NCBI GenBank assembly: GCA_963706445.1 | Contig: OY970160.1 | Location: forward strand, 512,001 to 576,000 | Direction: 5' to 3' | From: an uncultured Nitrososphaerales archaeon | GTDB lineage: Archaea > Thermoproteota > Nitrososphaeria > Nitrososphaerales > Gagatemarchaeaceae | DNA: 64,000 nucleotides | In this document: piece by piece, positions 30,879 through 52,948 of the stretch | How positions within the stretch are numbered: the first letter of the stretch is position 1 | Layout of the letters: every line of letters begins with the position of its first letter | Made by a program: the position numbers and the translations under genes | Notes under the pieces: generated by a model | What the model was told of the DNA's origin: nothing | Seen by the model: the letters and a program-made list of their open reading frames with translations, nothing else | The model's database searches: none

Positions 30879-30970
30879 AGCCTTCTAGCCTGCGATATCT
30901 GATAACACCCCGTTTACACCCAATTTTCCCGGCACAACCACTATATTGACTACGTTTCGAGGCTGGCCGA

Positions 30971-31045: not shown

Positions 31046-31098
31046 CTGTACCTGCGGGTTATATTCTCCTCCGCGGGTACACTGCTGGGTGGAGTGAG

Positions 31099-35689: not shown

Positions 35690-36285
35690 GTGGACGATGC
35701 ACCCGTCCACTGAAGGGTGGTCGTCAGGGTCGAGTTCGCCGGGTAGGTGATCGTCGGCGAGTAGAGCGCGCGTTGGAGCATGGACCCGCCCGTGATGAGG
35801 TTGAAGATCCCCTCCTCGGCGATGGTGTTGCCGCAGGCTGGCGAGGTGTTCGGGAAGAAGGCGTCTATCTCCATGCCTTTCCCGGACGAAATCGTAAAGA
35901 TGTTCGAGGCGTTGACCCTGTCCTTCTCTGTCTGTAGGGCCGAGTCTCCGGCTGCCGGCGCGGTCGAGCCCGTGCCTATGGCCTGATACTTCGGGAGGCT
36001 GCTCGACGTCCCGATGAGGATGCTGACGACCAGGACCAGGCCGTCGTCGACCGTCTTGTTGTGTGGGGCCCAGAGTCGCCTCGGCAGGGTCCGCCCGAGG
36101 ATCTTTCTCGGCGTGCAGAGCCTTCCCCAGCTGGCGAGGACCCTGTCCTTCTCGAGCTCGTGCATCAGGCCGACAGAGAGGTCCTTCTTGCCGAACAGGC
36201 TCCGGTAGTGGTCATAGCTCGGGACCGTGTCCGGGTTCCAAGCCATGCCCCAGCCAGTCCCTTTGAACAGAACACCCTCTTTCAT
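35686..36285 (-). CDS. Tail/baseplate structural protein (fibre-attachment-like)
   Basis: AIGTGSTAP..GD.AL.TE and IAEEGIF...GSML.R motifs seen in phage fibre N-terminal domains. Confidence 0.55.
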   Translation of the reverse strand: MKEGVLFKGTGWGMAWNPDTVPSYDHYRSLFGKKDLSVGLMHELEKDRVLASWGRLCTPRKILGRTLPRRLWAPHNKTVDDGLVLVVSILIGTSSSLPKYQAIGTGSTAPAAGDSALQTEKDRVNASNIFTISSGKGMEIDAFFPNTSPACGNTIAEEGIFNLITGGSMLQRALYSPTITYPANSTLTTTLQWTGASST

Positions 36286-36316
36286 ACCCGCGATTTCTCC
36301 GGACGGCTCTTTAACA

Positions 36317-39300
36317 TCAAATCAATTCGACGGCCTGGATGTGGAACACCGTCGGGCCCCTCGCCTGCTTCTGGGTCTCGAAGACGAAATCCATCCCCAT
36401 CACTTGGAAGTATTCGTTCAGCCCGGTCTGGACGGTGATGACAGTGACCAGCTGGCCGAGCTTCGGGAGCCTCTCCGGGATGTAGCAGTAGCAATCCAGG
36501 ACCCGCTTGCCGCTGCCCGAGAGGCTGACCTGGGCCACGACCAGGTTCACCATCGTCTGCCTGTCTCTGACGTTCTGGTCCGTGACGACGTCCTCCGAGA
36601 GCAGGTATTGGCTCTGGCTGACGGCGTTGTCCGCCTCCGTGACGATGAGCGGGGCCGAGTAGGTCCTGAAGGCGTAAGTGATTGTCGACGCCGTAGGAGT
36701 CCATGCCTGTCCCGTCGGTCGACGTGGCCTTCCTTCCCGAGGTGCCCGAGTCGTGGTACCAGCCATAGGTGTTGCCGGAGTCTCCTATCATGGCCAGGGC
36801 TATCCAATACTTCTGACCGACGAGCACGGTCTGGCTCCCGATGTCTGCCTGGACCCAACCGCCCCCCGAGAGGACGGTCGACACCGGGACCGTGAACTGC
36901 TTGACCAGAGCCCCAGGGACGCCTCCGACGTCGACGAAGACGTAGCCCTGCAGGTCTCCGGTCGGCGTCCCGGTCTTGTTGACGTAGATTCCGATGTATT
37001 GAAGCGTCTCCTGGGTCGGCGCGAACTGGAAGGCAATCCAATTGGCGTTGATCTTGTCGGCTCCTCCCACGACCGACGTCGAACTCTGGTCGATGACGGT
37101 GCTGTCCGTGCCTCCCAGCCCGTAGAGGCGGTTGACCAGGTCGGCGGAGGTGTCCTCGAACGAGAAGACCGCATCGTCGACGGCGTAGAGGACCCTGCTC
37201 TGGTCGTTCCAGGCCGCTCCCGTGGCCGGGTCGTCTGTGATGAGCGCCAACGAGTCCACAATCTCCGGGAAGGCGAAGTGGAGAATCTTCTCCTCGTCGA
37301 CCCACCAAACGCAGCCGGCCTGGGCTGCCAGGTCGTTCAGGATGTCGCTGATGCGCTTGTAGGGCGCGACGTAGCTGGGGATCGATATACCCGTGCTCGC
37401 TATGGTCGAGTTGTAGCCAGTGCCTGCGTAGAGCTGGGCCACCTCTCCGAGCGCCTGCTGGCCGACGGCCACGTCTCCGTCAGACATGGCCCGGTTGATG
37501 ACCTTCACGTCGTCGATGGTCGCGTTGAGCTTGCCCGCTCCGCTCCCCTCTGCCCCTATCCCCAGGGCCGTGTTGTTAGCGACTGGGACGTCAGAGTAAC
37601 TCCCCTGGGCCACCAGAATCCCGTCGACGTAGAGGCTCAGGTTCACCATATCGTAGACCCCGACGACGTGGTGCCAGGCTCCGGTCGAATAGCCCGTGGT
37701 CGCGTCGACGTATCTGAAGGCTGACCCTGTCCCGAACGAGACCCGGAAGGCTCCGGCGTTGGTGACCTGCAGGGCGTAGTTCCGGTTGTTATCTGCCAGC
37801 CCTTTGATGACGATGCTCGTGACCGAGCCCGGGGTGGCGATGACATAGACCCAGGCGGCTATCGTGAACGGCCCGGGGATGTCCAGGGTCGCCGCGTCCT
37901 GGACGGTCAGGTAGTTCGTCGACCCGTCGAAGGTCAGGGCGTGGCCGAAGAGCGAGTTCTGGCCGGAGGCCCAGGTCGGGGAGCCCGTGGCCGTGGCGTT
38001 GTTCCCGTTCCCGCTGACGTCTCCCGGGGTGGTCCCGGAACCTTCGTCGAGCGGCAGGTAGAGCACGAGGTTCGCGCGTCCGGGCCCTACCGTGTGGTAT
38101 TCGATTCCCTCATACTGGAAGACGGTCTGCTGCTGGGTCGGGTAGGCAGACTTGTCCGTGAGCACGAGCTTGACCAGGTTGCCCAGCTCGGTCGTCTGGT
38201 CCGTGCTGTCCACCGTGACGCCGTCCGACTGCTTCTTCTGGAACCTCGAGAAGTTGCCGATGCGCCTGGTGAGCCTCTGGGTCCAGTCGAAGCCGGCCAC
38301 CTCGTAGACCAGCCTCCCCAGGGCTGGCACCGTCGTCTTGTTTCCTGTGACCCGGCCGCTGAAGAACTTCACATACTCGCCTGACCTGCCCGCCCAGATG
38401 TCGACAGGGGTGTCGAGCAGGATCTTCCCCAACAAGACCTGGCCGGAGTCCTCTATCTCCAAGTTGAACGTCGACGCCACTCCTTCGGCTCCTCCGTTCG
38501 TGGTGATGCTCAGGAGGTTGAAGTCTGTCCTCGGGGCGACCGTGATGGGCGGGCTCGTGGCCAGCGTGAGGACCTCCTGGGCGGTGAGGACCCGGTCGTA
38601 GGCTCTGGGGTCGTCCACGGTCGAGTTCTGGGCGTGGTTCACCCCGTCGCCGAAGATGACCTTGTAGCCGGCCGAGACTCTGACGGTGACGGCGAGGGCG
38701 TGCTGGTCGAGCTGGACCCCGTCCAGGTAGAGCGTGATGGTCGCGCCATCGTAGGTCATGGCGAGGTGGTGCCAGCCGTTCAGGGGGGCCGTGTTCGAGC
38801 CGGGGCTGTAAGTGTGCTGGGAGTTGCCCGAATCGCAGAGCCCGTACTGGATTGCAAGGTTGCCGAGGACCTGGATCCACCAGTCGTAGTTCGCGGAGTT
38901 GCTCGTGCCTCCCGTGGCCTTTCTGACGATTACCTCGAGCAGCTGGGACGGAGCCTGCGCGAGGTAGGCCCAGGCGCAGATGCTGAACCCGCCGGTGAAC
39001 TGCAGGGCCGCGTTGTCGGCGACCTCGACCCAGTTGGCTGTGCCGAACTGGAGGGCGTCGCCGAACTTTCCAGGGACCCATGCCGGGGAGCTGATGAGGC
39101 TGCCCGTGTTCCCGTTGCCGCTCTTGTCTGTGGCCGTCGACCCGGTCCCGTCGTCCAGGGGCCAGTAGCCGACCAGGCCCAGGGGGACCGTCGGAGCCGC
39201 CGAGCCGTAGGGGTCTGCGACGTAGGTGAACCCCGGGGTCTTCAGCTGGACCTTCGCCAGCATGGGGCCCGTCTTGAACGGCCCAGTAGGCGGAGGCGGA

Positions 39301-39926
39301 GGCGCAGCTTGGGACGTCCTGAGCTCTATGGCAGCTGCTACCCAGCCAGCGGTGCCCGAGCCTGTCTCCCCAAGGGTCAGGGCCGCCGGCGTGGCGTTGG
39401 TGATGTCCTCGAGGCAGCTCGAGACAACTATCCCATAGATGTCCTGCCGGTTCAGGGTCACCCCTGCCCCGTAGGCTGCCATCGTGACGTTCAGGTGGAC
39501 GACCCAGCCGCCGACCACCCAGTTGTTGTTGTCCTGGGTCGTGACAGCCAGGGTCCCGGGGTCGGCCGATGCGCTCGAGGAGCTGTTCACGTTCCCGATT
39601 GCCGTGACGCTGGTGTAGGACACCGTCTCGGCCGTGAACTTCCCCGACCCGCTGTTGGTGACCGTGATGACGTTGGAGGCTGCCCCGGCGGTGGCGATGC
39701 AAGTCCAGATTTCGACAGAGACGCCTGCCGACCCGCCTGCGATCCCGGTCGCCTTAGAATAGCTGTTCCCTGCCGTGTCCGTGATTGTGGAGACCGACCT
39801 GGCGGAGCCTACTGCGAGGCCGACCAGGACGACTACACAGTCTCCGATGGCAGTCGCGACGGCAGGGAGCGCCCCGGAGATGGCGTTGAACGAGCCGCCC
39901 GTGATGTTCTTCCTGACGCTGGCCAA
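36317..39926 (-). CDS. Large tail tip/hub protein with two LamG/ConA-like domains; +1 frameshift near 36707
   Basis: Two LV.Y.PLD.G.G...D.SGNGN...W..G..G.AL.F...WHH...YD...LY.DG domains; hub-like WWVDEEKILHF; natural C-terminus is in the 36317-36766 frame. Confidence 0.8.
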
Positions 39927-39927
39927 T

Positions 39928-41379
39928 CTACACCCGCCGTTGGACCTGGGTCTTGAGGGTCTTCAGCATCCAGTCGGTGAGCTCCTGCTTGCTCCCGATG
40001 TAATTCGGGAAGTTGATCTGGTAGACCGTGGCCCCGCCGTTCATGTTCGGGACGTTGGGGGCGCCTGTCAGAGGGACGACCGCCTCGGGGCCGCTTTCGC
40101 CGATGAGCGCGTAGGTCGGCTGGGTGACTATCCCCCCTTCGGCCAGCCCGAGCGCCGAAAGGCCTCCGCTGATGTCTCCTCCTATGGACCCGATGACCCC
40201 GGTGACGTCCTTCACCCCGCCGACCACCAGGTTGATTGCGTCGATGATTGGCTGGATTGCCGTCATTATCGCGCTGAAGATCCCCTGCAGGACTCCCCAG
40301 ACTGTCTGGACGACGGTCTGAATCCCATTCCAAAGGTCGCCCCATGCGGTCTCGAACGCCCCGATTATCGTCTGGATGATTGCCCAGTTGGTCGAGAAGT
40401 AGCCGGAGATGACGTCCCAGACGACCTTCGCCACGGCCTGGATTCCGTCCCAGATGACACCCCAGGCCTTTGCGAAGTCGGCGACGGCTGCCTGGATGAG
40501 CTCGATTATCGGCTTGATGTAGGGGTAGAGGAAGTCGACCACGGCCTGGAACTTCTCCCTGATGCCTCCCCAGTCGTTGGTCCAGGCTTCGTAGAGCACG
40601 GCCATGATTGCGATTATGGCCACGGCTATCAGGATGAGCGGATTCGCGTCCATCACGGCGTTGAACACTCCCTGGGCCGCTGTCATCGCGCCCTGTCCTG
40701 CAGTCACAATCGCCGCCATGGCCGAGTGGGCCGCTCCTGCCAGGGTAGATGCGATGCCCATGCCTGCGAGCCCTCCGGCCAGGTTGGCCACGCTGAAAAT
40801 TAGGTTCGGGATCTTCAGGGCGATGCCGACCAGAGCCTCGTCGTATTTCTGCTGGGCGCTGTTGACGTTGTCGGTCGCCTTCTTCTGGGCGTCCAGGGCG
40901 GTCGTGAGCTTGGTCTGCGCCGCGAGGGCCGCTGCGCTGTTCGGACCTCCTGCGGCCACGGCGTCGTTGTAAGCCTGCTGGTCCGCTGTCACGGCCTGGT
41001 TGGCGCTGTCGAGGGCCAGGTTAGCCGTGTTCAGGTTGTTCTGGGCCGACGTCATCGTGTTGACGATGCTCGTGACCTGGCTCCCTACCGAGGCGAGGCC
41101 CTGGAACGCCTTCTGGCTCTCCATCAGGGTCGTGTTGCCCTGTTTCCAGTTGTTCCAGCTGAGGTTCACCTCCGTGTTGGAGTCCCGCATCGCGGTCCTC
41201 TGCTGGGAGATTGCTTCGTGCAGATAGTTCGCGGCGTCGGTGGCGTCCTGGTCGGCCTGGGCCATCGACTCCGTCGACGTGCTGGCGTCGGCTGCGGAAC
41301 TGGCGATGTCCTCGAACCCGGCGGCGGCGTCTGTCAGGCCGTCGGCCGTGACCTGGTAATCGATGGGGATGTCGACCAA
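39928..41379 (-). CDS. Tape measure protein (483 aa)
   Basis: Ala-rich coiled coil, ANPLIL, periodic W..I repeats, LAEGGIV...IGESGPEAVVPL. Confidence 0.88.
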   Translation of the reverse strand: MVDIPIDYQVTADGLTDAAAGFEDIASSAADASTSTESMAQADQDATDAANYLHEAISQQRTAMRDSNTEVNLSWNNWKQGNTTLMESQKAFQGLASVGSQVTSIVNTMTSAQNNLNTANLALDSANQAVTADQQAYNDAVAAGGPNSAAALAAQTKLTTALDAQKKATDNVNSAQQKYDEALVGIALKIPNLIFSVANLAGGLAGMGIASTLAGAAHSAMAAIVTAGQGAMTAAQGVFNAVMDANPLILIAVAIIAIMAVLYEAWTNDWGGIREKFQAVVDFLYPYIKPIIELIQAAVADFAKAWGVIWDGIQAVAKVVWDVISGYFSTNWAIIQTIIGAFETAWGDLWNGIQTVVQTVWGVLQGIFSAIMTAIQPIIDAINLVVGGVKDVTGVIGSIGGDISGGLSALGLAEGGIVTQPTYALIGESGPEAVVPLTGAPNVPNMNGGATVYQINFPNYIGSKQELTDWMLKTLKTQVQRRV

Positions 41380-41733
41380 CTACGCCGACCCCACGAAGTC
41401 GTTGAACGCGTCCTCCAGCCTGCCGTCCATCTCCGCCAGGATGGCCAGGACCGCCGGCGCCAGATAGGGCTGGGCTGCCTGCCTCGAGGTCCCGAACTCG
41501 ACATAGCTGGCGTAGGGCGCCGAAGCTCCCAGAGACCAGCCCCAGGCTGTGGCCGAGACTTCGATGCTGTCTCTCAGCCTCCCGGTCCGGACGGGCACAA
41601 TCTCGCGGGCGTAGGTGGCCATGTCCTCCAGGGAGCCGAGGATGACTTCGACGTCGACCTTCTCCAGGCTCTTGGCTATGGCCCGGGTCTTCCTGATGGC
41701 GTCCTCCAGCCCTGAGACGCTGAAATCACTCAC
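41380..41733 (-). CDS. HK97 gp10-like tail completion protein
   Basis: PVRTGRLRDSI, YASYVEFGTS, AQPYLAPA. Confidence 0.85.
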   Translation of the reverse strand: MSDFSVSGLEDAIRKTRAIAKSLEKVDVEVILGSLEDMATYAREIVPVRTGRLRDSIEVSATAWGWSLGASAPYASYVEFGTSRQAAQPYLAPAVLAILAEMDGRLEDAFNDFVGSA

Positions 41734-42273
41734 GGTAGAACTCCTCCGTGTTCGTGTCCATCTTCCGCTTCGCCTCCTGCAGGGATTCGACCAGGAGCCA
41801 GGACTGGATGAGTTTGGAATCTGCCGTCTCCGCCTCCTCTATCGAAAGGTGGTAATCGAGGACCAGGTGCCGGAGCCTCATGCTCCGCCGGAGCCAGGGC
41901 GTCAGGGTGCGCTGGTCGCCGAAGAAGACGAAGCGGCGGAGGCCGCGAGCTTCGTCCTTTCCGATAAAAAAAGGCCGTTGTATTTCTGGACAAGCTGGTC
42001 GACGATGGAACGCCTCCCGAGCTCCAGGTCCTCGGGGGTGACGCCTGCAGGCTCGACGATGGCCAGGGCGATTGCTCTGTAGGTGAGCGCCATCTTCTGC
42101 TCCGGGGTCTCCGCCTTCGCGTTGCCGATCTCGTCGTAGGCCTTGGCGTGGCTCTTGTCTTCGAAGACGAAGTGAAACTTCTCCCCGCTGACCGGGTCGA
42201 CCACGTCGAAGGGGTAGGTCCTCGGCGTGAGGAACGACTGCATCTTCTGGAGCTCTGTGGGCTCTGTCTCCAT
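41726..42273 (-). CDS. Tail assembly chaperone gpG (42273-41902) and -1 frameshift product gpGT (to 41726)
   Basis: CTT TTT TTA slippery site 41971-41965; -1 frame open for about 80 codons; lies between tail tube and tape measure genes. Confidence 0.8.
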
Positions 42274-42275
42274 GT

Positions 42276-43169
42276 CTAAGTTATCGCCGCCGACTGGGCC
42301 TGAAAGCCCCATTTCTCCGGGAGCGGTTCTTTGCTGTCCGCGTCGTAGGTTCTGTCCGTAAGGTCTGTCAGGTTGACGACGCTCAGGGTGAGGGTCGAGG
42401 TGGACGAGAGCAGGACCCAGGCGAGGGTCCTGGCCGTGCCAGCCTTCGCGTCTGTCTCGAGCGTGACCGCCGTGTATTCGTTGGTCAGGTCTCCCTTGAC
42501 GGTCCTGGCCAGGGACGGCTCCATGAACGAAGCCTTCTGGGAACCGAGAATCCACTTGGCGCCTACCTCTCTGGTGAACGTCACAGAAATCTGCTCGACC
42601 GGGATGGCCCCAGCGTTCCATGTCACCGGGTTGGCCCCTCCGCTTGCCATGCCCCAGAGGGCGGTCGCGTCGGCCGTCGCGTGGCTCCCGGCGCCGATGT
42701 AGTCCGAGGCGCTGGGCGTGTTGATCTGGTCGTGGGCCATGGTGACTTGGACCATTATCGTTGGCTTGCTGACGTCGCCGGTTATCTTCAGGGTCTTGAC
42801 CCTGGACCTCGTGCAGGTGACGAAGTTGGTCGTCCCGTTGAGCTTGAACGAGAATCCGATGCTGAGCGACTTGTCCGTGGTCCCTGAGCCTCCGCCGACG
42901 GCGCTGATGCCGTACTTCAGGAAGGTGGAGTTCGTGATGCCGAACTCGAAGGTCGACTCGAAGACCTGCCTGCCGAAGACCATCTTATAGAAGTCTTCTC
43001 CGCCGTGCCTCCGGTAGGCGTCGTTCTCGAGTGTAATCTTGGGCGTCCACTTGGCCACGTTGGCCAGGAACACCATCGCCGGGTTTGTCGGGATGGTTCC
43101 TTCCGTCGACTCCTCCACATACTCGAGCTGGTTGACGATCTTGCTCGCATGGGTCAGGGTCGCTGCCAT
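42276..43169 (-). CDS. Major tail tube protein
   Basis: 297 aa, LEYVEESTEGTIP N-terminus typical of siphovirus tube proteins; gene position. Confidence 0.75.
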   Translation of the reverse strand: MAATLTHASKIVNQLEYVEESTEGTIPTNPAMVFLANVAKWTPKITLENDAYRRHGGEDFYKMVFGRQVFESTFEFGITNSTFLKYGISAVGGGSGTTDKSLSIGFSFKLNGTTNFVTCTRSRVKTLKITGDVSKPTIMVQVTMAHDQINTPSASDYIGAGSHATADATALWGMASGGANPVTWNAGAIPVEQISVTFTREVGAKWILGSQKASFMEPSLARTVKGDLTNEYTAVTLETDAKAGTARTLAWVLLSSTSTLTLSVVNLTDLTDRTYDADSKEPLPEKWGFQAQSAAIT

Positions 43170-43420
43170 CAGGCGTTAACCTCCGCGACTGTCGTGAAGA
43201 TGACCTCTCTGTTCCAGGTCCCGCAGGCGGGACAATGCCAGTTTTTGACGACGCCTCCGTTGTCCGTGGGCTCGGTAAATTCTACGACTGGGGTGCCTGC
43301 ACAGGAATCGCTCAGATGCTCGAAAGTGAACTTGCCGCCCTCCTCAGGCTGTTTCTTACCCGTGGTCTCCTCGACCTGGAGGAGCTGTCGGGCTGGCCGG
43401 CTTATTAGCCTACGATTCAA
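43169..43420 (-). CDS. Small Zn-binding protein
   Basis: H..SC and CPACG motifs. Confidence 0.4.
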   Translation of the reverse strand: MNRRLISRPARQLLQVEETTGKKQPEEGGKFTFEHLSDSCAGTPVVEFTEPTDNGGVVKNWHCPACGTWNREVIFTTVAEVNA

Positions 43421-43455
43421 AAACGGGGCGCGGCCTACTCCTCTGGGGTAGGTCG
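43418..43455 (-). terminator. Hairpin plus T-tract between head and tail modules
   Basis: CGACCTACCCC-AGA-GGAGTAGGCCG stem followed shortly by TTTTT on the minus strand. Confidence 0.35.
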
Positions 43456-43463
43456 CCGGGTGC

Positions 43464-43676
43464 TCAATACCACCAGGGCTTCGACGTCGAGAACCACCAG
43501 GTGACTGCGCCCGAGGGCGTGTTCACGGTGGCGTTCCCGGTCTTGTCCCAGGTGACTTCGGAGTTGTTCACGGCCCTGTAGGTGGCTTTCTGTGCCTCCC
43601 TCTCCTCTGAGGTGGCGAACTGGAAAAGGTTGTCGGCTCCCGTGTCGTTGTTTCTGACGTAGAGCGGGAAGGTCAA
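43464..43676 (-). CDS. Small hypothetical protein
   Basis: 70 aa, TTGA overlap, virus-like codon usage. Confidence 0.5.
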   Translation of the reverse strand: MTFPLYVRNNDTGADNLFQFATSEEREAQKATYRAVNNSEVTWDKTGNATVNTPSGAVTWWFSTSKPWWY

Positions 43677-44056
43677 GATGCTGGGGCTCCTGCTGCAAAC
43701 TTGGCGTCGAGGGCTGCTACGAGGGCGTTGGCGATGGCCTGGTCAGATGCCGGGAGCTTTGCGATCTCTGTCTGGGCGATTGCCTTTGCGTCCGTCCAGG
43801 TCTTGGCGATTCCGGCGGTGGTGGTGGTCGACCCGACCGGGACGGTCCCGGTGTCGACGAAGGCGATGAGGTCAGAGACCACGTCGCCTCCCAGGACTCC
43901 GACTCCTGTGGCGACGGCGGTGACGAGGGCCTGGTGTGCAGGCGAGAAGGCGCTTGCGATTGCTGGGACGTTCCCGGCCACGAAGCCGAGCACGCCTCCG
44001 AGAGACCAGAGGATGCGGTCGAGGATGTTCTTCTGCTTTAGCGACAGTGATACCAT
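43673..44056 (-). CDS. 2-TM membrane protein (holin-like)
   Basis: Two hydrophobic helices; own late-promoter motif at 44081-44091. Confidence 0.5.
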   Translation of the reverse strand: MVSLSLKQKNILDRILWSLGGVLGFVAGNVPAIASAFSPAHQALVTAVATGVGVLGGDVVSDLIAFVDTGTVPVGSTTTTAGIAKTWTDAKAIAQTEIAKLPASDQAIANALVAALDAKFAAGAPAS

Positions 44057-44096
44057 TTGCGAGTTCTCAAGTCGCAGGCACCGTCTTTAACGGGAC

Positions 44097-44390
44097 TCAG
44101 GCCTTGACCTTCTCGTAGTAGGCCGTCACGGTGCCTACCGAGTGGACCCACTCCGGCTTGTAGTCGGCCGCTTCGCCTGGAGGCTCCGGGGCTTCCCTGA
44201 ACCCGCTGAAGTCCCACCAGCTGATGCCCGCCGCCGGGTTCGCCTTGAGCAGGAGGACCTGCTGGGCCACTTCGAGCTCCATCTTCCATTTCTTGTCCTT
44301 GTTGGCGTTCCCCTTCGCCCAGACGTGGACGGAATGGTTGTCCAGGTATTCCCACCTGGCCGCCCCCATGCTCGTAGGCCTGAGGACGGG
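44097..44390 (-). pseudogene. 3' remnant of a tail-terminator-like gene
   Basis: Coherent frame WEYLDNHSVHVWAKG...HSVGTVTAYYEK that begins abruptly where the capsid sequence degenerates. Confidence 0.45.
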
Positions 44391-45225
44391 TGAGGTCGGG
44401 GTCGAAGATGGTCTTGACTTGTGGGTATCCGATGGCTCCGAGGTCCGCCGTCCCTGCGTCGAGGGCAGCGGCCGGGTTGTGGTATCTGACGAAGGTGTTG
44501 CTGCGGAAGTTCTTCCAGACGGTGGGGTGCATGGCGACCGTGTCGACCTGGAACCCAGACTGCGCGATGGCGTCATACTGGGCGTCGATGTCGGTCAGCG
44601 GGTTGTAGAGGCTGAAGTCGTTGTTCGAGTTCATGGTGGCGTAGCTGCCGACGCCTGCTCCTGCGCCTGCGTCCGACTCTGCGATCGTGGCCAGCTGGCT
44701 GTTCTCCAGCTTGACGAGGGCCATGGCGGCGTTGCTGACGTGGAGGGCGAAGACGTCGTGGACTGCCTGCTTCTCGGACTCGTCCGAGAGCAGTATGTGG
44801 GCGACGTTCTTGCCGATGGCTGCCAGGTCGAAGGTCGTCCTGGCGTAGGTCTGCTTGACGACCTGGGCCTCCTCCAGCGGGAGGATGCGGCCGGTCGCCG
44901 AGAACTTGGTGCCGAGGTCCACACTGAGGACCAGCTGCGGCGAGTTGATGATCTGGAAGCACTCCCTCAGGCGGTATTGTCTGAAGGTCAGACCGAGGAC
45001 CTGGTCGAGCACGACTATCGCCTTGATGGTCGAGCTGTCCGGGGTGTCGAAAATGCCTGCGCGGAGCTCCTGTTCTGCGGCTCTCAGGAACCTGGGCTCT
45101 ACTTCGGTGGGCCTGCCTTTCGCTCCGAACTTGGCGACGTATTCGCTGGTCTCGGGGTGGCCGACCGCTCCTCTGTAGAAGACCTGGTCGTCAGGGTTGA
45201 ACCAGGCGAGGTGTGTTCCGTCCAT
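44390..45225 (-). CDS. Major capsid protein (HK97 fold), C-terminally truncated; ORF runs on out of context to 44038
   Basis: E-loop-like ILPLEEA, KNVAHILLSDE, VDTVAMHPTVW; follows protease and cement genes. Confidence 0.75.
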
Positions 45226-45228
45226 GTC

Positions 45229-45669
45229 CTATGCACTTATCCCCGCTCGGTAGCCGAGCAGAATCCTTCCGGTGCCGTTCTTCGTGATGGCTTCGTAGGC
45301 CATGCCCACGATGAGCCTGAGCTCCTTGGTCTGTGACTGGACGTAGTTGCTGCTGAAGTCGGTCGCCTCCGCCAGCTGGACCTTTGTCTTGGCCGTGGTG
45401 CCGGGCTTCACGAAGTTCCCGAGCGGGACGGCTGCGACGTTGTCCTCTGCAACCTCGACGATGCCTTCGAGGAGGCACCTGCCGGTCCCTGCTTTGGTGA
45501 TGGCTTCGACCGCGACCACATAGGGGCCTGCGTCTGTAGTGTTCTGGGCGTCGTGGACCTTCCCTGCGCGTAGGACGCACAGGTCGCCTTTGACGATGGC
45601 CGATGTGTTGTCCTCGGTGAGCTGGATGAACCGCGCTCCAATCTCACTGTCTACGTCTCCTACCGCCAT
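45229..45669 (-). CDS. Capsid cement/decoration protein
   Basis: 146 aa, IVKGDL, VAVEAI, EGIVEV, VGMAYEA; between scaffold and MCP. Confidence 0.6.
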   Translation of the reverse strand: MAVGDVDSEIGARFIQLTEDNTSAIVKGDLCVLRAGKVHDAQNTTDAGPYVVAVEAITKAGTGRCLLEGIVEVAEDNVAAVPLGNFVKPGTTAKTKVQLAEATDFSSNYVQSQTKELRLIVGMAYEAITKNGTGRILLGYRAGISA

Positions 45670-47054
45670 TAGGCGCCGCCTCCTCTGTTTGCTCCAAACA
45701 AGCTCGAGTACAGTTCGTCGACGATGCTGTCAGGCGCCATGCTGTCTGCGGCGGCCGCCTGGAAAGTGACCGTGGATGCTCCCCTCGTCTTGAGGGTCCC
45801 TGCGAGTATCTTCTGATAGGTCTCGCCGATGACGTTGAGCGCATCCGCGCTGAGCGTCTTGATGGCTTCGACCTCTTTGGCGAAGTCTGCCTGCCTGGCC
45901 AGACCCGCCTGAACCTTGAGCTCTACCACCCTGTTGATGACCTTGTCGTGCTCTGCGGCGATCCTCTGGGCCTTCTCCATCTCAAGGACGTCGAGCTTGG
46001 TCTTCAAGCCTTCGATGGTGGCATTGAACGCAGCACACTTGGCGTCCATGTCTGCCTTCATGTCCGCGATCTTCTTCTCCGCTTCTGCGGGCTCCATTCG
46101 AGGTTGGTTCGCCGTCGGAGGCTCTTTAACGTGGTCCGCTTCCGAGAATTTCGACCAGGCGTAGGCGTAGAGCTTGTCGCTCTGGATCTTGTCTCCGATG
46201 AGCTGGGCGGCTTCTCCGACCGTCTTGGCCAGGCCTGCCTGGATGGCAGCCCCGACGCTCCTGTTCTTGATGGCCGCGCAGACCTTCTGGGCCGTGTCCT
46301 TGTCGCCGTACTTGTCCATCATCTTGGACAGGCACTGCTCCCAGGGGAACGAGCCAGGGCCTGACGCGGGCGCGGCGTAGTAGTCCTTGAGCAGCTCGTC
46401 CATCGACGCGACGAAGTCCAACGTCTGGGGCTTCTGCTCTCGTGCTTCTTTAACGGCCAGCTCGAGGGCGGCCGAGAAGTTGCAGGTCCTGACGTCGGGG
46501 CTGACGCAGGTCCCCTTGACCCGGGCCTGGCTTCCGAAGGCCGGCCTGGCGACGAAGGCGAGGTGCCTGCCGAGGAACGACTTGACCAGCTCCAGCCCTC
46601 CGCTCTGAGTGACGTTGTTCGTGTCTACCCGGATCTGGGGGCTGACCCACATCCATGCGCCGCTCTTGATCCCCTCCCAGGCTGCGTCGTCTGTTATCTC
46701 CACGATGCCGAAGGCGTCCTGGGCCTGGCCGACCTCGATTATCGTCCCGACCTTGTGGCTCTGCTCGTAGGCTGCGAGCTCTGCCGGGCTGAAGCTCTGA
46801 AGATCTCCTGCAGCGTCCTTGTAGGTCCCGTGCTCGTTGGGATCTCCGGGTGGACCGAGGACAGGCCTGCCGATGAACGACCTGAGCCCGTCCATGATGG
46901 CGTCCGTCGTCACGCCCCACTTGTTGAGGCTCATGCTGTCGTCGATGAGGAAGACCTTGACGTAGTGCTTGCCAGACTTCTCGTAGGGCTCGAAGCTACG
47001 GCTGAGATAGTTCAGAACCTGAGGCGTCTGGACTTGGGTAAGAGATTGTGACAC
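45669..47054 (-). CDS. Prohead protease-scaffold fusion
   Basis: GRPVL...H, WVSP, HLAFVARPAFG protease motifs; C-terminal coiled coil. Confidence 0.8.
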   Translation of the reverse strand: MSQSLTQVQTPQVLNYLSRSFEPYEKSGKHYVKVFLIDDSMSLNKWGVTTDAIMDGLRSFIGRPVLGPPGDPNEHGTYKDAAGDLQSFSPAELAAYEQSHKVGTIIEVGQAQDAFGIVEITDDAAWEGIKSGAWMWVSPQIRVDTNNVTQSGGLELVKSFLGRHLAFVARPAFGSQARVKGTCVSPDVRTCNFSAALELAVKEAREQKPQTLDFVASMDELLKDYYAAPASGPGSFPWEQCLSKMMDKYGDKDTAQKVCAAIKNRSVGAAIQAGLAKTVGEAAQLIGDKIQSDKLYAYAWSKFSEADHVKEPPTANQPRMEPAEAEKKIADMKADMDAKCAAFNATIEGLKTKLDVLEMEKAQRIAAEHDKVINRVVELKVQAGLARQADFAKEVEAIKTLSADALNVIGETYQKILAGTLKTRGASTVTFQAAAADSMAPDSIVDELYSSLFGANRGGGA

Positions 47055-47616
47055 GGCTGGCGTCTTCCTGGGCCACCACCGCTTTTAACGCGGCTTCCTT
47101 GACCACAGGCAAGCCGGCCGCCACCTCCTCGGCGAGCTCCTCGAGGAGCGGCTCCATCTCAGAGAGGTTGTCCCCCAGGTGCAGGCCGGGGCAGACCTGC
47201 TGGGCGTCTTCCAGGTAGCCCACGTTGCCGTCGGCGTCATAGTGGAACGGGTAAAGCCTGCAGGGGTGCGGCCTGGCTCCGTACACCGCGCACCTCTGGT
47301 CGTCCTTGAGGAACGGGCAAGCCTCGAAGGGCTTGACGTTGAGCTGGCTCAGGCCGAAGTCTCCCTCATGGGTGCAGTCCTTCACAAAGTCGAGGTTCGC
47401 CGGGGCCCTGGCGGCCAGGGCTTTGACGTCTCGAGGCAGGAGCGACAGGGCCCTGGGGTGGCAGCACTTCCCGCAGTCTGGCAGGCACTCGAACAGGATG
47501 AGCTTGCCTTCCTGGGTAACCGGGACCTGGACCTTGACGCCGTTCTTGGCCTGATACTGGGCGAAGGCGACGATGCGGGCGTTGGCCACCTTCGGGTCCA
47601 CGGCTGGGGGAGTCAT
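46996..47616 (-). CDS. YkgJ-family CxxCxxCC Fe/Zn-chelating protein
   Basis: CLPDCGKCC, CPFL, CAVYGARPHPCRLYPF, CPG. Confidence 0.8.
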   Translation of the reverse strand: MTPPAVDPKVANARIVAFAQYQAKNGVKVQVPVTQEGKLILFECLPDCGKCCHPRALSLLPRDVKALAARAPANLDFVKDCTHEGDFGLSQLNVKPFEACPFLKDDQRCAVYGARPHPCRLYPFHYDADGNVGYLEDAQQVCPGLHLGDNLSEMEPLLEELAEEVAAGLPVVKEAALKAVVAQEDASRVTISYPSPDASGSELSQP

Positions 47617-49385
47617 TCTTCCGTCGCATCCAGGGTCTTGTCGGTCAGCTTAAGGCCAATCGTCTTGACGCTGAGCGAGGCCGTCAGGGTCTTCGCGCTG
47701 AGCCTCACCGTGTGGTCCTTCTTGCTCAACATGACAGTCAGGGTCTTCGTGATGAGCCGGAGCGCTATGGCCAGGACCATCCTGGAGATGGCCGATGCGG
47801 CGAACCCTACCGCGAAGCTCGCAGACGCCGCCTGGCTGAACGCGAACCCGGGACTCATGGACAGGCCGAAGGACGCCTGGACCGACTGGCTGAGCAGCTC
47901 CGTCGCCGTGAACCCTACGCCGAAGCTCGCAAGCACGCCCTGGCTGACCACGAACGAGGCGCTGAACCCTATCCCGAAGGTTCCGGGCGCAGTCGCGCTC
48001 TGGACCCCGCCTGCGGCGACTGCGACGGCCGACATCCCGAGAGCGAACTCTGCAGCAACGGCCTGGCTCATCGTCTGGGCTGCCGAGAACTGGACGCCGA
48101 AGGTCCCGGAGACGAGGATGACGTTGACCTCGGCCGCAGCGAACCCTACCCCGAATGACGCTCCGACAGCCATCGTGTTCTTCTCAGCGGCGGACATGGC
48201 CAGCCCGAACGATGCGGCGACGGACTGGCTGAGAGACTCCGACGCTGAGAGCTGGATGCCGAAGGACGCTCCTATAGACACGACATTGATCTCCGAGGCC
48301 GTCAAGGCCACTCCGAACGAAGCAGCCGCCTTCTGTGTGAGCATCTGCTCAGCTGCAGACATCGCCACGCCGAACGACCCCGCTACGCCCTGGCTGAGAA
48401 GCTCGGCCGCTGTGAACCCGGCCCCGAACGATGCGCCTATGGCGACCGTGTTCTTCTCGGCTGCTGCCAAACCGACCCCGAAAGTCCCTGCGACCAGGAC
48501 GGCGTTCGCCTCGACCGCAGACATGGCTACCCCGAAAGACGCCCCGGTCGACATGATGTTCTTCTCTGCGGCGGACATCTGGACCCCGAAGACGCCAGCC
48601 GATGCCTGTTGCGGGAACGCCTCGGAGGCTGCCATCGCCACCCCGAAGGCCCCCGACGTCGCCTGACTCGCCATCTTCTCTGCAGCAACGAAGGCCGCTC
48701 CGAACGAGGCAGAGACCGCTTGGCTCATCTTCTGGGTAGCCGAGAGCCCGACGCCGAAAGAGGCCGCCACCGGGGCGGGGGATATGAGCTCGAGGATTAC
48801 CGCCTGCCATTGGGTCGACCCCGACCCCGTCTCGCCGACCGTGACGGAGCCGCCCGACGCGCTCTGAAGGTCGAGCAGGGACTCCGTGATGACGGTCCCG
48901 ACTACCTCGGTGTCCCTCTGGGTGACGCCCGCCCCCGATGCCGAGGTGGTGACGTTGAGGTTGACGACCCATCCGGCCACGGCCCAACTCTGCGCCCCGA
49001 CCGTCAGCGAAATCGTGCCGGGGTCTGACGTCCCTGCGGCCGAGGAGTTTACCCCTTCGGCGAGGACGCTCGAATAGGAGGCTGTCGACGCCCCGAACTT
49101 TCCGTTGGCCGAATTGGTTATGGCGATGACGTTAGAAGCGTTCGCGTGGGTCGCGCCCTTGCAAGTCCAGATTTCGACGTCCCTTGAGGCCGTGGCCCTG
49201 CCGACCCTCTTGGCGTAGGTGTTCCCTCCGGTGTCTGTGATGGTCGAGACGACGGTCGCCGCAAGTGCAGTAGCGACGACTACGACGATCCAGTCCCCGA
49301 GCGCGGTGTTGATGGCGGGAAGGTTGACGGTGTTGGTCGCGCTTGAGCCCTGAACCGCTCCCGTAATGTTGAAGGGGTTGGCCAT
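47613..49385 (-). CDS. Repeat-rich fibre protein (about 18 repeats of 18-19 aa)
   Basis: ASFGVG.SA.E repeats; N-terminal 200 aa paralogous to the tail-tip protein N-terminus; 9-aa L..K repeats at the C-terminus. Confidence 0.7.
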   Translation of the reverse strand: MANPFNITGAVQGSSATNTVNLPAINTALGDWIVVVVATALAATVVSTITDTGGNTYAKRVGRATASRDVEIWTCKGATHANASNVIAITNSANGKFGASTASYSSVLAEGVNSSAAGTSDPGTISLTVGAQSWAVAGWVVNLNVTTSASGAGVTQRDTEVVGTVITESLLDLQSASGGSVTVGETGSGSTQWQAVILELISPAPVAASFGVGLSATQKMSQAVSASFGAAFVAAEKMASQATSGAFGVAMAASEAFPQQASAGVFGVQMSAAEKNIMSTGASFGVAMSAVEANAVLVAGTFGVGLAAAEKNTVAIGASFGAGFTAAELLSQGVAGSFGVAMSAAEQMLTQKAAASFGVALTASEINVVSIGASFGIQLSASESLSQSVAASFGLAMSAAEKNTMAVGASFGVGFAAAEVNVILVSGTFGVQFSAAQTMSQAVAAEFALGMSAVAVAAGGVQSATAPGTFGIGFSASFVVSQGVLASFGVGFTATELLSQSVQASFGLSMSPGFAFSQAASASFAVGFAASAISRMVLAIALRLITKTLTVMLSKKDHTVRLSAKTLTASLSVKTIGLKLTDKTLDATEE

Positions 49386-49412
49386 CGCGGGGTCGTTTCG
49401 TCTGGTCCGGCT

Positions 49413-50153
49413 CTATAACTTGCCGACCGTCTCGCGCCTGACCCTGCCGTCCCACATCCTGAGGTGGACGCACTTGACGCGGGTGTCGACCCAGACGCCG
49501 TGGCCGGCCTTCTGGGCGATGAAGCAGAAGATGTGGTCCTCTGAGAAGACTATCTCTCCTCCTTCGACGTCGACGACGCGGGTGAGGTCGAACCTGACCC
49601 TGGGGTCGTCCAAGACCTTCCTGGAGATGAACATGCAGGCCGTGTTGACGGCGCCGACCTTCGCGAGATCTTCCTCGGGCATCTCCTTTGCGAACTGGAA
49701 GAACGGGCGGAAGTATCCGAACCCCGGCCTGAAGCGGCCGTCCTGGTCGGGGATGTTCACGAGGCCCCCGACGATGTCCTTGCCGTCTGCTATGAACCTC
49801 CTGATGGCGTCTCTCGGCGGCTGGACGTCCGAGTCGACGAACCAGCCGTAGTCGCTCCCCTTCGCCCGGGACAGGAGCAGGTTCCTGATGGCGCCGAGCT
49901 CCGTCATCCTATTGTGGTGGAAGTCCTCGTCGGCCCTCTGGGTTACTTCGTAGCGCATCACCTGGTGGTCGAGCCTGAAGTTCTCTTCCACGAAACGGGC
50001 CTGATCGTCTCCCTCCGCCGGGACCGCGAAGACGAACTTCAGCCTGTCCTTGGGCCAGTCAAGACGATACCACGAAGACCAGACCGGGAGCAGGTTCTCG
50101 TTGTGCTGAGGCTGCCCGCTCAGGGGAGTGAGGACGACGACGGAAGGGCGCAT
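49413..50153 (-). CDS. GT-A fold (GT2-like) glycosyltransferase
   Basis: RN.LL, WFVDSDV (DxD), KDIVGG, SEDHIFC, VWVDTRVKCVH. Confidence 0.8.
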   Translation of the reverse strand: MRPSVVVLTPLSGQPQHNENLLPVWSSWYRLDWPKDRLKFVFAVPAEGDDQARFVEENFRLDHQVMRYEVTQRADEDFHHNRMTELGAIRNLLLSRAKGSDYGWFVDSDVQPPRDAIRRFIADGKDIVGGLVNIPDQDGRFRPGFGYFRPFFQFAKEMPEEDLAKVGAVNTACMFISRKVLDDPRVRFDLTRVVDVEGGEIVFSEDHIFCFIAQKAGHGVWVDTRVKCVHLRMWDGRVRRETVGKL

Positions 50154-50163
50154 GGCGCCGGGC

Positions 50164-50850
50164 TTACGTCAGGGCGCCTGTGTAGGTGACGGTCAGGGTC
50201 CCTGTCGCGGAGACCGGGAATCCCGCCCCTGCGTTGACCGTGTCGTGGCAGATGAGGAACTGGAAGGTCGCCGACGTCATCACGAGGCCGACCTCCTTGT
50301 AGGTGATTGTCGCTCCTGAGCTGTTCGTGATGGTCGCCGTGATCGAGAGGTTGTTGTTGGCGCTGATCGCACCGACGAGGGCTTGGGCCGAGTAGTTCGT
50401 GGCGACGTTGTAGTTCGAGGTCGCTCCGCCTCCGAAGGTCTGGAGGTTGTAATCGTTGAAGTTCGGTCCTGTCGCGCCTGTCCCGGCCACGATGTAGGGC
50501 GGGATCGCGCCTCCGCTGTTCCCTGCTGAGACCGAGCGGTTGGTGTTGTTCACATCGAGGATGTTGACGGCCGCTCCGGCGATGCCTCCGAGGATCGCCT
50601 GGGCCATCCACTTGCCGAACTGGAGCGTCGAAAGGTCTGACCAGCACTCGCCGACTATGCCTCCCTGGCAGTCTGCGAACTTGTCCAGGAGGACCGTCCC
50701 GTCTGACTGGGCCTTGCCTGCCGGGAAGTGGGCGTAGCCGTGCTCCGGGCACGGGTCCCTGGCGACGATGTGGGTCGACATCTTTGGACCGAAACCGCCC
50801 ATGGTTGCTGGAGGAGTTGTCTCGCGTGGAATCGGTAGCGATGCCGACAT
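50164..50850 (-). CDS. Structural protein (fibre-attachment-like), similar in type to 35686-36285
   Basis: IVAGTGATGP...DYNL and ITYKEVGL motifs. Confidence 0.55.
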   Translation of the reverse strand: MSASLPIPRETTPPATMGGFGPKMSTHIVARDPCPEHGYAHFPAGKAQSDGTVLLDKFADCQGGIVGECWSDLSTLQFGKWMAQAILGGIAGAAVNILDVNNTNRSVSAGNSGGAIPPYIVAGTGATGPNFNDYNLQTFGGGATSNYNVATNYSAQALVGAISANNNLSITATITNSSGATITYKEVGLVMTSATFQFLICHDTVNAGAGFPVSATGTLTVTYTGALT

Positions 50851-50878
50851 CAGACTCAGACGAACGTCGGTCGGCTCT

Positions 50879-51232
50879 TTAACCTGCGCTCGGAACGACT
50901 GCGACGATGAAGGTGTCGATGTTGTTCTCGACGTAGCTGGCCTTCGTGAGCTCTACTTCGCCGTTGAAGTTCGTGACCTGGGTCGGGATGGCTGCTGCCT
51001 TCAGGGCTGCCGCATCCGCCGGCGTCGGGGTCCAGCAGGCGACCCCGTTAGCCAGGGGTGCGACCCCGGGGATGACCACCGACAGGGCCAGGACCGCAGG
51101 GTCGTCCAGCCAGACCTTCAGCGTAATCGTGAACCCTGTCAGGTCGACCACCGTCTTGCCGTCGTTCTGTGTGACCGTGATGTTCACCGGGAAGCCGTAG
51201 TTCCCGGCCTTGATCTGCAGGGTCTGGGTCAA
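50879..51232 (-). CDS. BppU-like adaptor/structural protein
   Basis: IKAGN...DG..VVDLTG.T...NG.....P...D....F.GEVELT. Confidence 0.5.
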   Translation of the reverse strand: MTQTLQIKAGNYGFPVNITVTQNDGKTVVDLTGFTITLKVWLDDPAVLALSVVIPGVAPLANGVACWTPTPADAAALKAAAIPTQVTNFNGEVELTKASYVENNIDTFIVAVVPSAG

Positions 51233-52770
51233 CTCGGCGCCACCGACTCCGCCCCTTCACCTGGGGCCTCGGACGGCGCAGTCACCTGCTCGAGCGTGAT
51301 GCCTCCGGGCGGCTGCGGTCCGGTCGGGTTCGGGCCGATGACGCTCTCCAGGGCGATGGGCCTCCAGACGTGGGCGATGTAGACCTCGGGCTCGTAGTCG
51401 TCCTCTGCAACCTCCGTGCCATCTTTGGCCTTGTTCAGGCCTGCGTCCATGCACCACTTCTTGACGAGCGGGGCATACCACCTCGCCTCGAGCTGACCGC
51501 CATACTGGGTCTGGTCGTCGGCCACAACCCCGTTGATGAACATGAGCGCCTGGATCTCCGCTGTGGCCCTGTTGACGTTGTGCTCCCTGTTCAGCAGGAA
51601 CCTCGGGACCTGGAAGTTGCCTATGAGCTCGTTGTCCAGGTTCTCCTTGGCCGTGATGAGCTTGTCGAGGTCCGGCGAGATGTCGAGCTTCTGGAACGTG
51701 ACCTTCTGGTTGACGCCGATGAACTTGCCGGGCGCAAGGTTGGCGTTATCCAGGACGCTGTTGATTATGGACGCGGCGGCCGCGGGGCTCTGCCTCTCGG
51801 TGTCAATCTGCAGCAGCCCTGCCGGCGCCCAGAGGCTCTTAGCGACTTCCTGGATGGCCTCCTGGAGCAGGAACCTGCGAGCCTGCAGCGGCCAGCTGAT
51901 GGGCTCTATCTCGGACAGGCCGACGTGCTCGCCAAGTATCTCGTTGTTGGTGAAGTGCAGGACGTCCTCCGGTGGCAGGATGTTCGTGTCTGCTCCGACG
52001 CTGATGTCCGCCCTGATGCCGTAGTAGAGCCAGTGGTCTATCTCTCCCGATGCCCTGTCGATGCGCGGCCACATGGCCCAGGGCTCGAGCTCGATGAGCT
52101 TGGTCGGCTCTCCCTTGGCGTCCCTGAAGATGAAGAACGCCGCCAAGCCGCAGACCTTCCCGAACGTGATGGCCTCGCGCATGATGGCGTCGATGTTGAA
52201 CTTCCTGTTCATGCCGTCGATGTAGTCTTTCAAGCCTCCGTAGACCTTCATCGGGTCCTCGTAGACGTCCGTCGTGGCGGTGGTCTTGATAGGCGGAGCC
52301 GGAGGCTGTCCTTTGGCTACTGGGACGGGCGTGGTCGTGACCGTAGTCTTGGTGCCGCGCTTGTGGGCGCTGGGGTTGACCCACTTGACGACGGTGTCCG
52401 CGCCTTCCTTCGTGACCCACTGGGCCCGGATCTGGACCGACTGCCTGACGATGCTGTCCCGCTTGAACTCCCTGAACCACTTGTCCATGGCGTCGTAGGC
52501 GATGGACCTGGCGAAGGTGACGTCCCCGCCGCCATACTGCAGCCTGAACTGCCAGCCGACGCCCCTGCCTGTGGTGCTCCCTGGGGTCCTGGCTCTCCTG
52601 AACTGGCCGTCCGCGACCGGCTTAAGGCCAGCCTCTTTCCTGAGCTCGTTGAAGCTCCTGGCCACGGCGTCGTCGTGCAACTTCTCGTCGGCGACCTGAA
52701 GCTCGAAGTCCGTGTCCGGCCCCTTCTTGGTGCTCGCTACCGCCTCGACAGGCTCCCTTGGCTTGGCCAA
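51229..52770 (-). CDS. Portal protein
   Basis: 513 aa after TerL; GLAAF, PEDVLHF, GLSEIEP, FQVPRFLL, NRATAE. Confidence 0.85.
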   Translation of the reverse strand: MAKPREPVEAVASTKKGPDTDFELQVADEKLHDDAVARSFNELRKEAGLKPVADGQFRRARTPGSTTGRGVGWQFRLQYGGGDVTFARSIAYDAMDKWFREFKRDSIVRQSVQIRAQWVTKEGADTVVKWVNPSAHKRGTKTTVTTTPVPVAKGQPPAPPIKTTATTDVYEDPMKVYGGLKDYIDGMNRKFNIDAIMREAITFGKVCGLAAFFIFRDAKGEPTKLIELEPWAMWPRIDRASGEIDHWLYYGIRADISVGADTNILPPEDVLHFTNNEILGEHVGLSEIEPISWPLQARRFLLQEAIQEVAKSLWAPAGLLQIDTERQSPAAAASIINSVLDNANLAPGKFIGVNQKVTFQKLDISPDLDKLITAKENLDNELIGNFQVPRFLLNREHNVNRATAEIQALMFINGVVADDQTQYGGQLEARWYAPLVKKWCMDAGLNKAKDGTEVAEDDYEPEVYIAHVWRPIALESVIGPNPTGPQPPGGITLEQVTAPSEAPGEGAESVAPS

Positions 52771-52771
52771 C

Positions 52772-52948
52772 TTACTCGGACCTGTCGCTGGCCTCCGATA
52801 TTATCGTGACACCTGGCCTGTCCAGGCCTTCGTCGGACCACCGCTTCCTGGTCTTGGTCTTCCTGGAGACCGCTACTGCAGTAGGCTCGGTCGGCTTCTC
52901 CTTCAGCGGCTCGCCGAGCTTCAGAGCGTGAGGCTCTTCGTCGCTCAT
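52772..52948 (-). CDS. Small hypothetical protein
   Basis: ATGA overlap with upstream gene; 58 aa. Confidence 0.35.
   Translation of the reverse strand: MSDEEPHALKLGEPLKEKPTEPTAVAVSRKTKTRKRWSDEGLDRPGVTIISEASDRSE

Follow-up and report, generated by a model that had tools for sequence, protein, structure and literature searches.

A positioned GTTAWAG-type word at the particle genes of an archaeal provirus and two relatives, probably the core TATA box of a virus-group-specific promoter class

The window analyzed here, a 64,000-nucleotide (nt) stretch of contig OY970160.1, comes from an uncultured Nitrososphaerales archaeon whose genome is a single contig of 1,817,757 bp with 58% G+C. Archaeal housekeeping genes fill the first 30 kb, followed by an integrated provirus of the tailed-virus type, which begins at a tRNA-Glu and has a right end that we take to lie at about 63790. 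A tyrosine integrase marks the left end, the particle genes lie on the minus strand, and the provirus also encodes a HerA-like ATPase, a C2H2 zinc-finger protein and a 1214-amino-acid (aa) lectin-domain protein. An earlier note on this DNA had described seven copies of a motif, GTTAWAGAGCC, at a fixed distance upstream of start codons in the structural region, and had read them as a virus-specific late promoter class giving near-leaderless mRNAs, with a viral activator such as a Zn-finger protein as a possible partner. This word, its position in the provirus and its counterparts in related viruses are the subject of the present analysis. Gene calls were home-made, with boundaries judged by frame plots of G+C at third codon positions (GC3) and by homology; most products of the genes headed by the word had no match in Pfam or PHROGs.

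All seven minus-strand sites and the start codons assigned to them exist, at the spacings claimed (Table 1; sites are named by their first base). The count of seven copies held for the core and not for the complete motif, since the 11-mer is exact at 50883, 49419, 46130 and 36315, the sites at 46454 (GTTAAAGAAGC) and 44091 (GTTAAAGACGG) share GTTAAAGA, and the site at 47089 (GTTAAAAGCGG) has GTTAAA alone. The four exact copies compare with 0.03 expected in the window, lie on one strand within 14.6 kb, and are the only ones in the genome; none of 100 shuffles reached four. When two mismatches were allowed, 20 copies were found against 17 expected, an uninformative result indicating that the signal resides in the 8-nt core together with where it stands. 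The genome holds 28 copies of GTTAWAGA, six of them on one strand of these 15 kb; none lies on the opposite strand of the provirus. Seven of the eight coding-strand GTTAWA words in the provirus are followed 30-35 nt downstream by the start of a high-GC3 open reading frame (ORF) of at least 100 aa, a link that holds for ~4% of random positions (binomial P about 1e-9). An AT-rich, TATA-like box of about 8 bp that resembles the host TTAWAW box is present at all seven sites, and their restriction to the particle-gene module was upheld. In the early region the boxes are different ones, such as ATTATAAG at 62915.

GC3 frame plots and homology placed four of the words at gene junctions, two in frame within a 461-aa ORF and one in a gene end. 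At the real junctions (50883, 49419, 44091 and 36315) the upstream stop codon falls within the word or 1-5 nt before it, and the word at 47089 falls in the final codons of an upstream CxxCxxCC-domain gene. The coding frame of the 395-aa 'capsid' ORF changes near 44400, and its real stop is the TGA at 44097. By GC3, the coding frame of the 1214-aa lectin-domain ORF also changes, near 36720 (within 36282-36766 of the window, minus strand); past this point the high-GC3 frame is that of a 149-aa ORF (36317-36766) ending in a TGA that is probably the true end of the frame upstream of word 7. A frameshift, a junction left by a deletion or a gene overlap could each account for this change of frame.

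Host promoter geometry was derived from about 1,586 long high-GC3 ORFs called genome-wide. An AT-rich peak occurs at -34 to -26 upstream of candidate starts, with enrichment of TTAAAT, TAAATA, TTATAT, CTTAAA and similar hexamers. The first T of host TTAWAW boxes lies at -28 to -36 (mode -29 to -31), and their consensus reads cTTAWAW, preceded by a weakly preferred A at -4 (46% of boxes). In the viral words the first T stands at -29 to -34, as far from the start codon as in host boxes, in agreement with the TATA-like core that the earlier note proposed. Leaders of roughly 0-5 nt are predicted from this geometry, so the near-leaderless reading also fits, and in GeneMarkS-2 the leaderless group holds all 11 Thaumarchaeota analyzed (PMC6028130). 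Across the whole genome, TATA-like boxes 28-36 nt upstream are enriched 4.7-fold at TTG starts, 4.3-fold at ATG and 1.4-fold at GTG. The similarity of TTG to ATG makes the TTG start at site 4 credible and suggests that TTG-initiated leaderless mRNAs are common in the host archaeon.

Because host TATA boxes lie at the same distance, the words could be ordinary host-type boxes of no special class, made uniform by shared ancestry and coding constraint. Few AT-rich words fit into dense, G+C-rich coding DNA, where TAA is a stop and GTT AAA GAx reads Val-Lys-Glu, and a stop codon indeed lies within the word at three junctions. Some host ORFs carry GTTAWAG at promoter distance, and the provirus has no TBP or TFB, as the two TBP and five TFB genes of the genome all lie outside it. 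The viral word is nevertheless narrower in sequence than host boxes, with G at -1 in 7/7 viral sites compared to 20% of host boxes, and G at +5 in 6/7 compared to 14%. Further evidence on this alternative came from related viruses.

IMG/VR scans with the portal, protease-scaffold, tube, capsid and terminase proteins and a 146-aa protein recovered the same two viruses only, and genome-contig scans with the portal and an alignment gave no further relatives. One virus, IMGVR_UViG_3300038415_000044 (L016, the same virus as Ga0187870_1000751), has 62% G+C, a portal 68% identical and a terminase 79% identical to those of the window; loci L015/16/30/33/35/38/64/65 all represent it, at 99.97-99.99% identity. 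The other, IMGVR_UViG_3300032020_000600 (L017/L039), is represented by L017/31/36/39/66, has 46% G+C, and its protease-scaffold protein is 36% identical. Two proteins from Logan assemblies, P0002 and P0003 (52-54% identical), would represent two further relatives. Whole-genome searches of the class and of the order, with 400 genomes each, gave distant proviruses in other families only, and none in the 96 genomes of the host's family; the order tally includes one unpublished genome (G365), on which no claim rests.

The two relatives carry the word on the coding strand at places that correspond to those in the window: ahead of the protease-scaffold gene, within it ahead of conserved in-frame starts, behind the portal block and ahead of the tail block (Table 1). 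L016, for which 0.1 copies of GTTAAAGA are expected, has four, each on the coding strand with a start 32-34 nt downstream. In L039/L017 there are four exact copies of GTTAAAGAAAA and two more with a single mismatch, each on the coding strand; the expected number is 0.64. At the position of site 5, L016 carries GCTAATAAGAG (GCT AAT AAG AG) exactly 33 nt before the aligned internal ATG, and its portal gene has the one-mismatch form GCTAAAGACCG 32 nt before the start.

At the place of a likely eighth promoter in the window (43399..43409), L016 has GCTAATAAGAGCG and L017 has GTTAAAGAAAA, and a variant, GCTAATAAG, is conserved upstream of the small pre-tube gene in the window (43409) and L016 (15882). 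This eighth site would give an mRNA with a leader, of about 46 nt to a conserved ACG position, and in L039 the 49-nt distance together with a GAGGAG box indicates that the unit before the tube gene has a leader. At the start of this small Zn-ribbon gene (window 43354-43420, minus strand; L016 15882-15930; L017 13872-13925) the low-G+C relative has ATG, and both G+C-rich viruses have ACG, with no other in-frame start 3' of the promoter-like box. Either the start is non-canonical, or an upstream TTG is read from a longer transcript. A second unusual layout occurs in L017 at 6198-6520, which is open in the protease-scaffold frame from the word to the annotated ATG without a canonical start. The segment encodes a second FDDCV...AKKICGAL-type motif, and the frame of the GTG 33 nt past the word is a different one; the arrangement could reflect a frameshift in the assembly or an unusual start.

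Table 1. Words, boxes and genes of the provirus, and counterpart words in its two relatives.
Feature	Sequence	Coordinates	Strand	Motif	Context
Word 1	window	50873..50883	minus	GTTAAAGAGCC	33 nt before ATG 50850 (228-aa gene); TAA of upstream 117-aa gene within word
Word 2	window	49409..49419	minus	GTTATAGAGCC	34 nt before ATG 49385 (590-aa gene); TAG of glycosyltransferase-like gene within word
Word 3, weakest	window	47079..47089	minus	GTTAAAAGCGG	35 nt before GTG 47054, start of protease-scaffold gene
Word 4, internal	window	46444..46454	minus	GTTAAAGAAGC	in frame, Val-Lys-Glu; 33 nt before in-frame TTG 46421 (predicted 250-aa nested product)
Word 5, internal	window	46120..46130	minus	GTTAAAGAGCC	in frame, Val-Lys-Glu; 33 nt before in-frame ATG 46097 (predicted 142-aa coiled-coil scaffold part)
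Word 6	window	44081..44091	minus	GTTAAAGACGG	35 nt before ATG 44056 (127-aa gene); 5 nt after stop TGA 44097
Word 7	window	36305..36315	minus	GTTAAAGAGCC	30 nt before ATG 36285 (199-aa gene); 1 nt after TGA 36317-36319
Likely eighth promoter	window	43399..43409	minus	GCTAATAAGCC	variant; before small Zn-ribbon gene preceding tail-tube gene
Portal TATA-like box	window	52795..52805	minus	GATAATATCGG	35 nt before TTG 52770; ordinary-looking; head of module
Provirus	window	from 30971			integrated, tailed-virus type; starts at tRNA-Glu; particle genes on minus strand
Tyrosine integrase	window	30946-32130	plus		left end of provirus
Portal gene	window	51229-52770	minus
Protease-scaffold gene	window	45669..47054	minus		461 aa; contains words 4 and 5
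Capsid gene, truncated	window	start 45225	minus
Tube-like (tail-tube) gene	window	42276-43169	minus
Counterpart of word 3	L016	9366	coding	GTTAAAGACGC	32 nt before TTG of protease-scaffold gene
Counterpart of word 4	L016	9968	coding	GTTAAAGAGCC	33 nt before aligned in-frame TTG
Word in region deleted from window	L016	14015	coding	GTTAAAGA	32 nt before 133-aa gene
Counterpart of word 6	L016	15361	coding	GTTAAAGAGCG	34 nt before ATG of 127-aa gene homologue
At position of word 1	L039		coding	GTTAAAGAAAA	after portal and small ORF; 34 nt before ATG
Counterpart of word 3	L017	6198	coding	GTTAAAGAAAA	before protease region; 33 nt before GTG
Counterpart of word 5	L017/L039		coding	GTTAAAGAAAA	inside protease-scaffold gene, read His-Val-Lys-Glu; 39 nt before internal ATG
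Copy at gene junction	L039		coding		TAA stop within word; 34 nt before ATG
Copy before small pre-tube gene	L039		coding		49 nt before ATG; GAGGAG box present

Across 16 aligned sites from the three viruses, conservation is confined to GTTAAAGA. Positions 9-11 are uniform within each virus and differ between viruses, being GCC or GCG in the window and L016 and AAA in L039, with the flank reading A(G/C)(C/G)(C/G) or AAAA. For the three orthologous pairs shared by the window and L016, the core is identical at 22/24 positions (92%) and the flanks at 36/108 (33%), indicating that descent alone is not enough to explain the uniformity of the word. Moreover, the relative with 46% G+C is not short of AT-rich words, yet it has the same core and an identical 11-mer four times. 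Ordinary boxes without a class of their own are therefore an unlikely explanation. A possible, weak second element 3' of the word, CCGACG-like in the window and GCTTCGG-like in L016, was seen by eye.

The fixing of positions 9-11 in each virus resembles co-evolution with a factor, as might be expected if the word were mainly the site of a viral or host regulator, such as a lysogen repressor or an activator, and not itself a TATA box. Regulator sites adjoin core promoters in archaeal viruses, as found for Sta1 on SIRV1 (PMC1635249), and a consensus at early genes of archaeal viruses (PMC11065993) points in the same direction. However, the word is non-palindromic, only 8-11 nt long and located exactly at the host TATA position, and the starts in question have no other AT-rich box. 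No candidate regulator was identified, and Pfam searches of the early region returned the C2H2 zinc-finger protein and the HerA-like ATPase only. We thus consider a pure regulator site improbable, more so than the ordinary-box explanation.

The 461-aa product of the gene that contains words 4 and 5 has five homologues (P0001-P0005), and in a structural model with a predicted local distance difference test score (pLDDT) of only 50, residues 19-170 match the T4 prohead protease gp21 (5jbl_A; Z 9.0, root-mean-square deviation 3.5, 129 residues), the sole structural match with Z of at least 8. Residues 322-399 of the same model form a single long helix. One homologue weakly matches phrog_976, a head maturation protease (E 0.0018), and searches of Pfam and of PDB sequences with the protein gave no match. 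An internal Met stands at the aligned column in P0001-P0004, and P0005 has a Met nearby. From the positions of words 3, 4 and 5, the predicted products are the full protein, a 250-aa protein and a 142-aa coiled-coil scaffold.

T4-gp21-type proteases prefer to cleave at I/L/V-x-Glu, and the in-frame words (46444-46452 and 46120-46128, minus strand) encode Val-Lys-Glu at both domain borders of the gp21-like protein. Such copies might accordingly be kept as a cleavage peptide for the protease, and the other words, several of which overlap or abut upstream stops, as a gene-end or RNA signal for termination, processing or re-initiation. Codon choice argues otherwise for the peptide: GTT accounts for 7% of Val codons and AAA for 15% of Lys codons in the provirus, but Val-Lys is written with these rare codons, GTT AAA, at sites 4 and 5 only, and likewise in the two in-frame copies of L016. 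In addition, the scaffold start in L016 retains the AT-rich box (GCT AAT AAG) at 33 nt and not the Val-Lys-Glu peptide, indicating that DNA and not protein is conserved there. A gene-end signal fits poorly with a distance to the start that is fixed at 30-35 nt while the upstream stop lies inside the word, 1 or 5 nt before it, or about 90 nt after it, and with in-frame words that have no stop at all. A gene-end signal or cleavage peptide as the reason for the word is the least probable of the alternatives, and very improbable in itself, although the nine bases of each in-frame word may act as a promoter and a cleavage site at once.

Weighing these alternatives, we conclude it to be probable that GTTAAAGA forms the core of a TATA box and that the promoters bearing it make up a class peculiar to one small virus group, namely this provirus and its two uncultured relatives, tailed viruses of soil/peat Nitrososphaerota-like archaea. 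The class probably serves late genes. Of the 'late promoter class' in the earlier note, the location at particle genes was borne out, and 'late' itself follows from that location only. 'Virus-specific' applies to the 11-mer and to the strict G at -1 and +5, and not to the bare core GTTAWAG, which also precedes host ORFs.

We infer a mechanism in which host TBP, TFB and RNA polymerase would bind the word; the occurrence of GTTAWAG before host ORFs implies that the host machinery is presumably able to use the core. With a transcription start about 29-31 nt past the first T, and so 0-5 nt ahead of the start codon, the mRNAs would be leaderless or nearly so, like many host mRNAs. Downstream of the portal, every transcription unit in the particle-gene module would have the word at its head, and the two in-gene words would yield 3'-co-terminal transcripts for shorter in-frame products of 250 aa and 142 aa, the latter being the scaffold part. 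TTAAA is strictly flanked by G on both sides, and this, together with the three bases fixed in each virus, suggests one more specificity determinant, possibly a certain pair of host TBP/TFB paralogues or a regulator. The genome has TFB genes near 887, 991, 1309, 1573 and 1715 kb and TBP genes near 1038 and 1580 kb, a large set of basal factors for 1.8 Mb. This extra determinant would time the class separately, as 'late', the least certain step of the mechanism. A dedicated late circuit, read by one host TBP/TFB pair or by a viral factor and using the in-gene words to set the protease-to-scaffold ratio via leaderless transcripts, can be put forward only tentatively, as a possible but doubtful extension of the promoter class.

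Comparison with L016 also showed that the provirus has lost part of the particle-gene module. The interval on the minus strand at 44103-45300 of the window corresponds to L016 11143-15110, and 113 nt in the window stand against 2,887 nt in L016, indicating that ~2.8 kb were deleted and that the provirus is defective. The deletion removed the last ~56 capsid residues, three entire genes and the 5' part of a 170-aa gene, and its remnants are fused out of frame near 44355-44467. Elsewhere in the module the window has extra genes: the 228-aa, glycosyltransferase-like and 590-aa genes (47613-50850, minus strand) sit between the portal block and the CxxCxxCC gene, and in L016 the portal is directly followed by the homologue of the CxxCxxCC gene. 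Two of these three inserted genes bear their own exact 11-mer, resembling phage 'morons' that carry their own promoter.

Several observations weigh against a promoter class special to these viruses. Conservation was followed in only two independent viruses, both uncultured, and eight of the loci from more distant proviruses, in other families of the order, lack a start-linked GTTAWAG. The bare core is not private to the virus, since GTTAWAG stands at promoter distance before about 11 unrelated host ORFs; no common function is evident among these ORFs, and some of the sites are probably internal positions. Over the 16 aligned sites no base upstream of the G at -1 is conserved, hence there is no purine-rich transcription factor B recognition element (BRE); in the host, too, this element is weak. 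Two of the L039 sites lie 39 and 49 nt before starts, showing that not every unit is leaderless. The provirus being defective, its own promoters may no longer matter to it, and the promoters are known here from DNA alone, in an organism known only from its genome. Regarding the in-gene words, in the haloarchaeal Haloferax tailed virus 1 (HFTV1), the one archaeal tailed virus studied experimentally, RNA was reported to be no more abundant across the 3' portion of the gene and so did not account for the internal scaffold start (bioRxiv 10.64898/2026.09.13.751334).

The closest published parallel is the GTC element of the rod-shaped Sulfolobus islandicus viruses SIRV1 and SIRV2, located directly 3' of the TATA box in most of their promoters (Kessler et al. 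2004, J Bacteriol 186:7745, as described in PMC5569661 and PMC1635249). As in those viruses, a virus without its own polymerase would here use host-type TATA promoters fused to extra bases that host promoters lack, and copies of the element stand at many viral genes, also in related viruses. Unlike the TATA box plus GTC of these Rudiviridae, the element here is G-TTAAAG-A plus three virus-specific bases, with a flank that is not GTC, in a tailed HK97-type virus of another host phylum. It is also confined to the particle-gene module, embedded in coding sequence at some sites, and known from sequence alone. Rudiviruses, fuselloviruses and others have conserved early-gene sequences around a strong BRE/TATA core (PMC11065993), which similarly are repeated virus-specific cassettes that mark one gene class and can be found by motif search. 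Those cassettes span 30-100 bp with a strong BRE and belong to early or anti-defence genes, whereas the present word has 8-11 nt, no BRE, and belongs to structural genes. Phage T4 late promoters, TATAAATA, are read by gp55/gp33 with the sliding clamp (PMC2988020), and there one short AT-rich word without the usual upstream element marks every late transcription unit, as the present word may do; in contrast to T4, with its own sigma-like factor, the provirus has no TBP/TFB homologue and its transcription system is archaeal. The word and the virus group are thus new, and the principle of a virus-specific promoter element was already known.

Nested scaffold proteins have been made in several ways, and in phage lambda the C/Nu3 pair arises through an internal translation start. 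Herpesviruses, among them herpes simplex virus 1 (HSV-1; UL26/UL26.5), transcribe the scaffold from a separate promoter within the gene (PMC11565193), and the archaeal HFTV1 pair gp17/gp17.5 is reported to use an internal translation start whose mechanism was left open (bioRxiv 10.64898/2026.09.13.751334). The provirus gene resembles UL26/UL26.5 in being a protease-scaffold fusion ORF with a conserved in-frame internal start and a promoter-like word within the ORF. Unlike the herpesvirus, lambda and HFTV1 genes, it has two internal words, so that three products are predicted. In HFTV1 gp17 no TATA-like box is evident at about 30 nt ahead of the region of the internal start, where the preprint reports lower RNA; HFTV1 thus neither supports nor contradicts internal promoters here.

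To our knowledge, hardly any work has been done on how tailed viruses of archaea other than haloarchaea are transcribed. A positioned and conserved word provides a ready map of transcription units in an uncultured virus group and a simple aid for calling true starts, including TTG starts and nested products. It could also serve as a defined template in work on promoter-class selection by archaeal TBP/TFB paralogues or viral factors. The words inside the protease-scaffold gene point to a testable, herpesvirus-like way to make more scaffold than protease from one frame. If the dedicated late circuit proves true, it would supply, for an archaeal tailed virus, the mechanism of nested scaffold production that the HFTV1 study left open.

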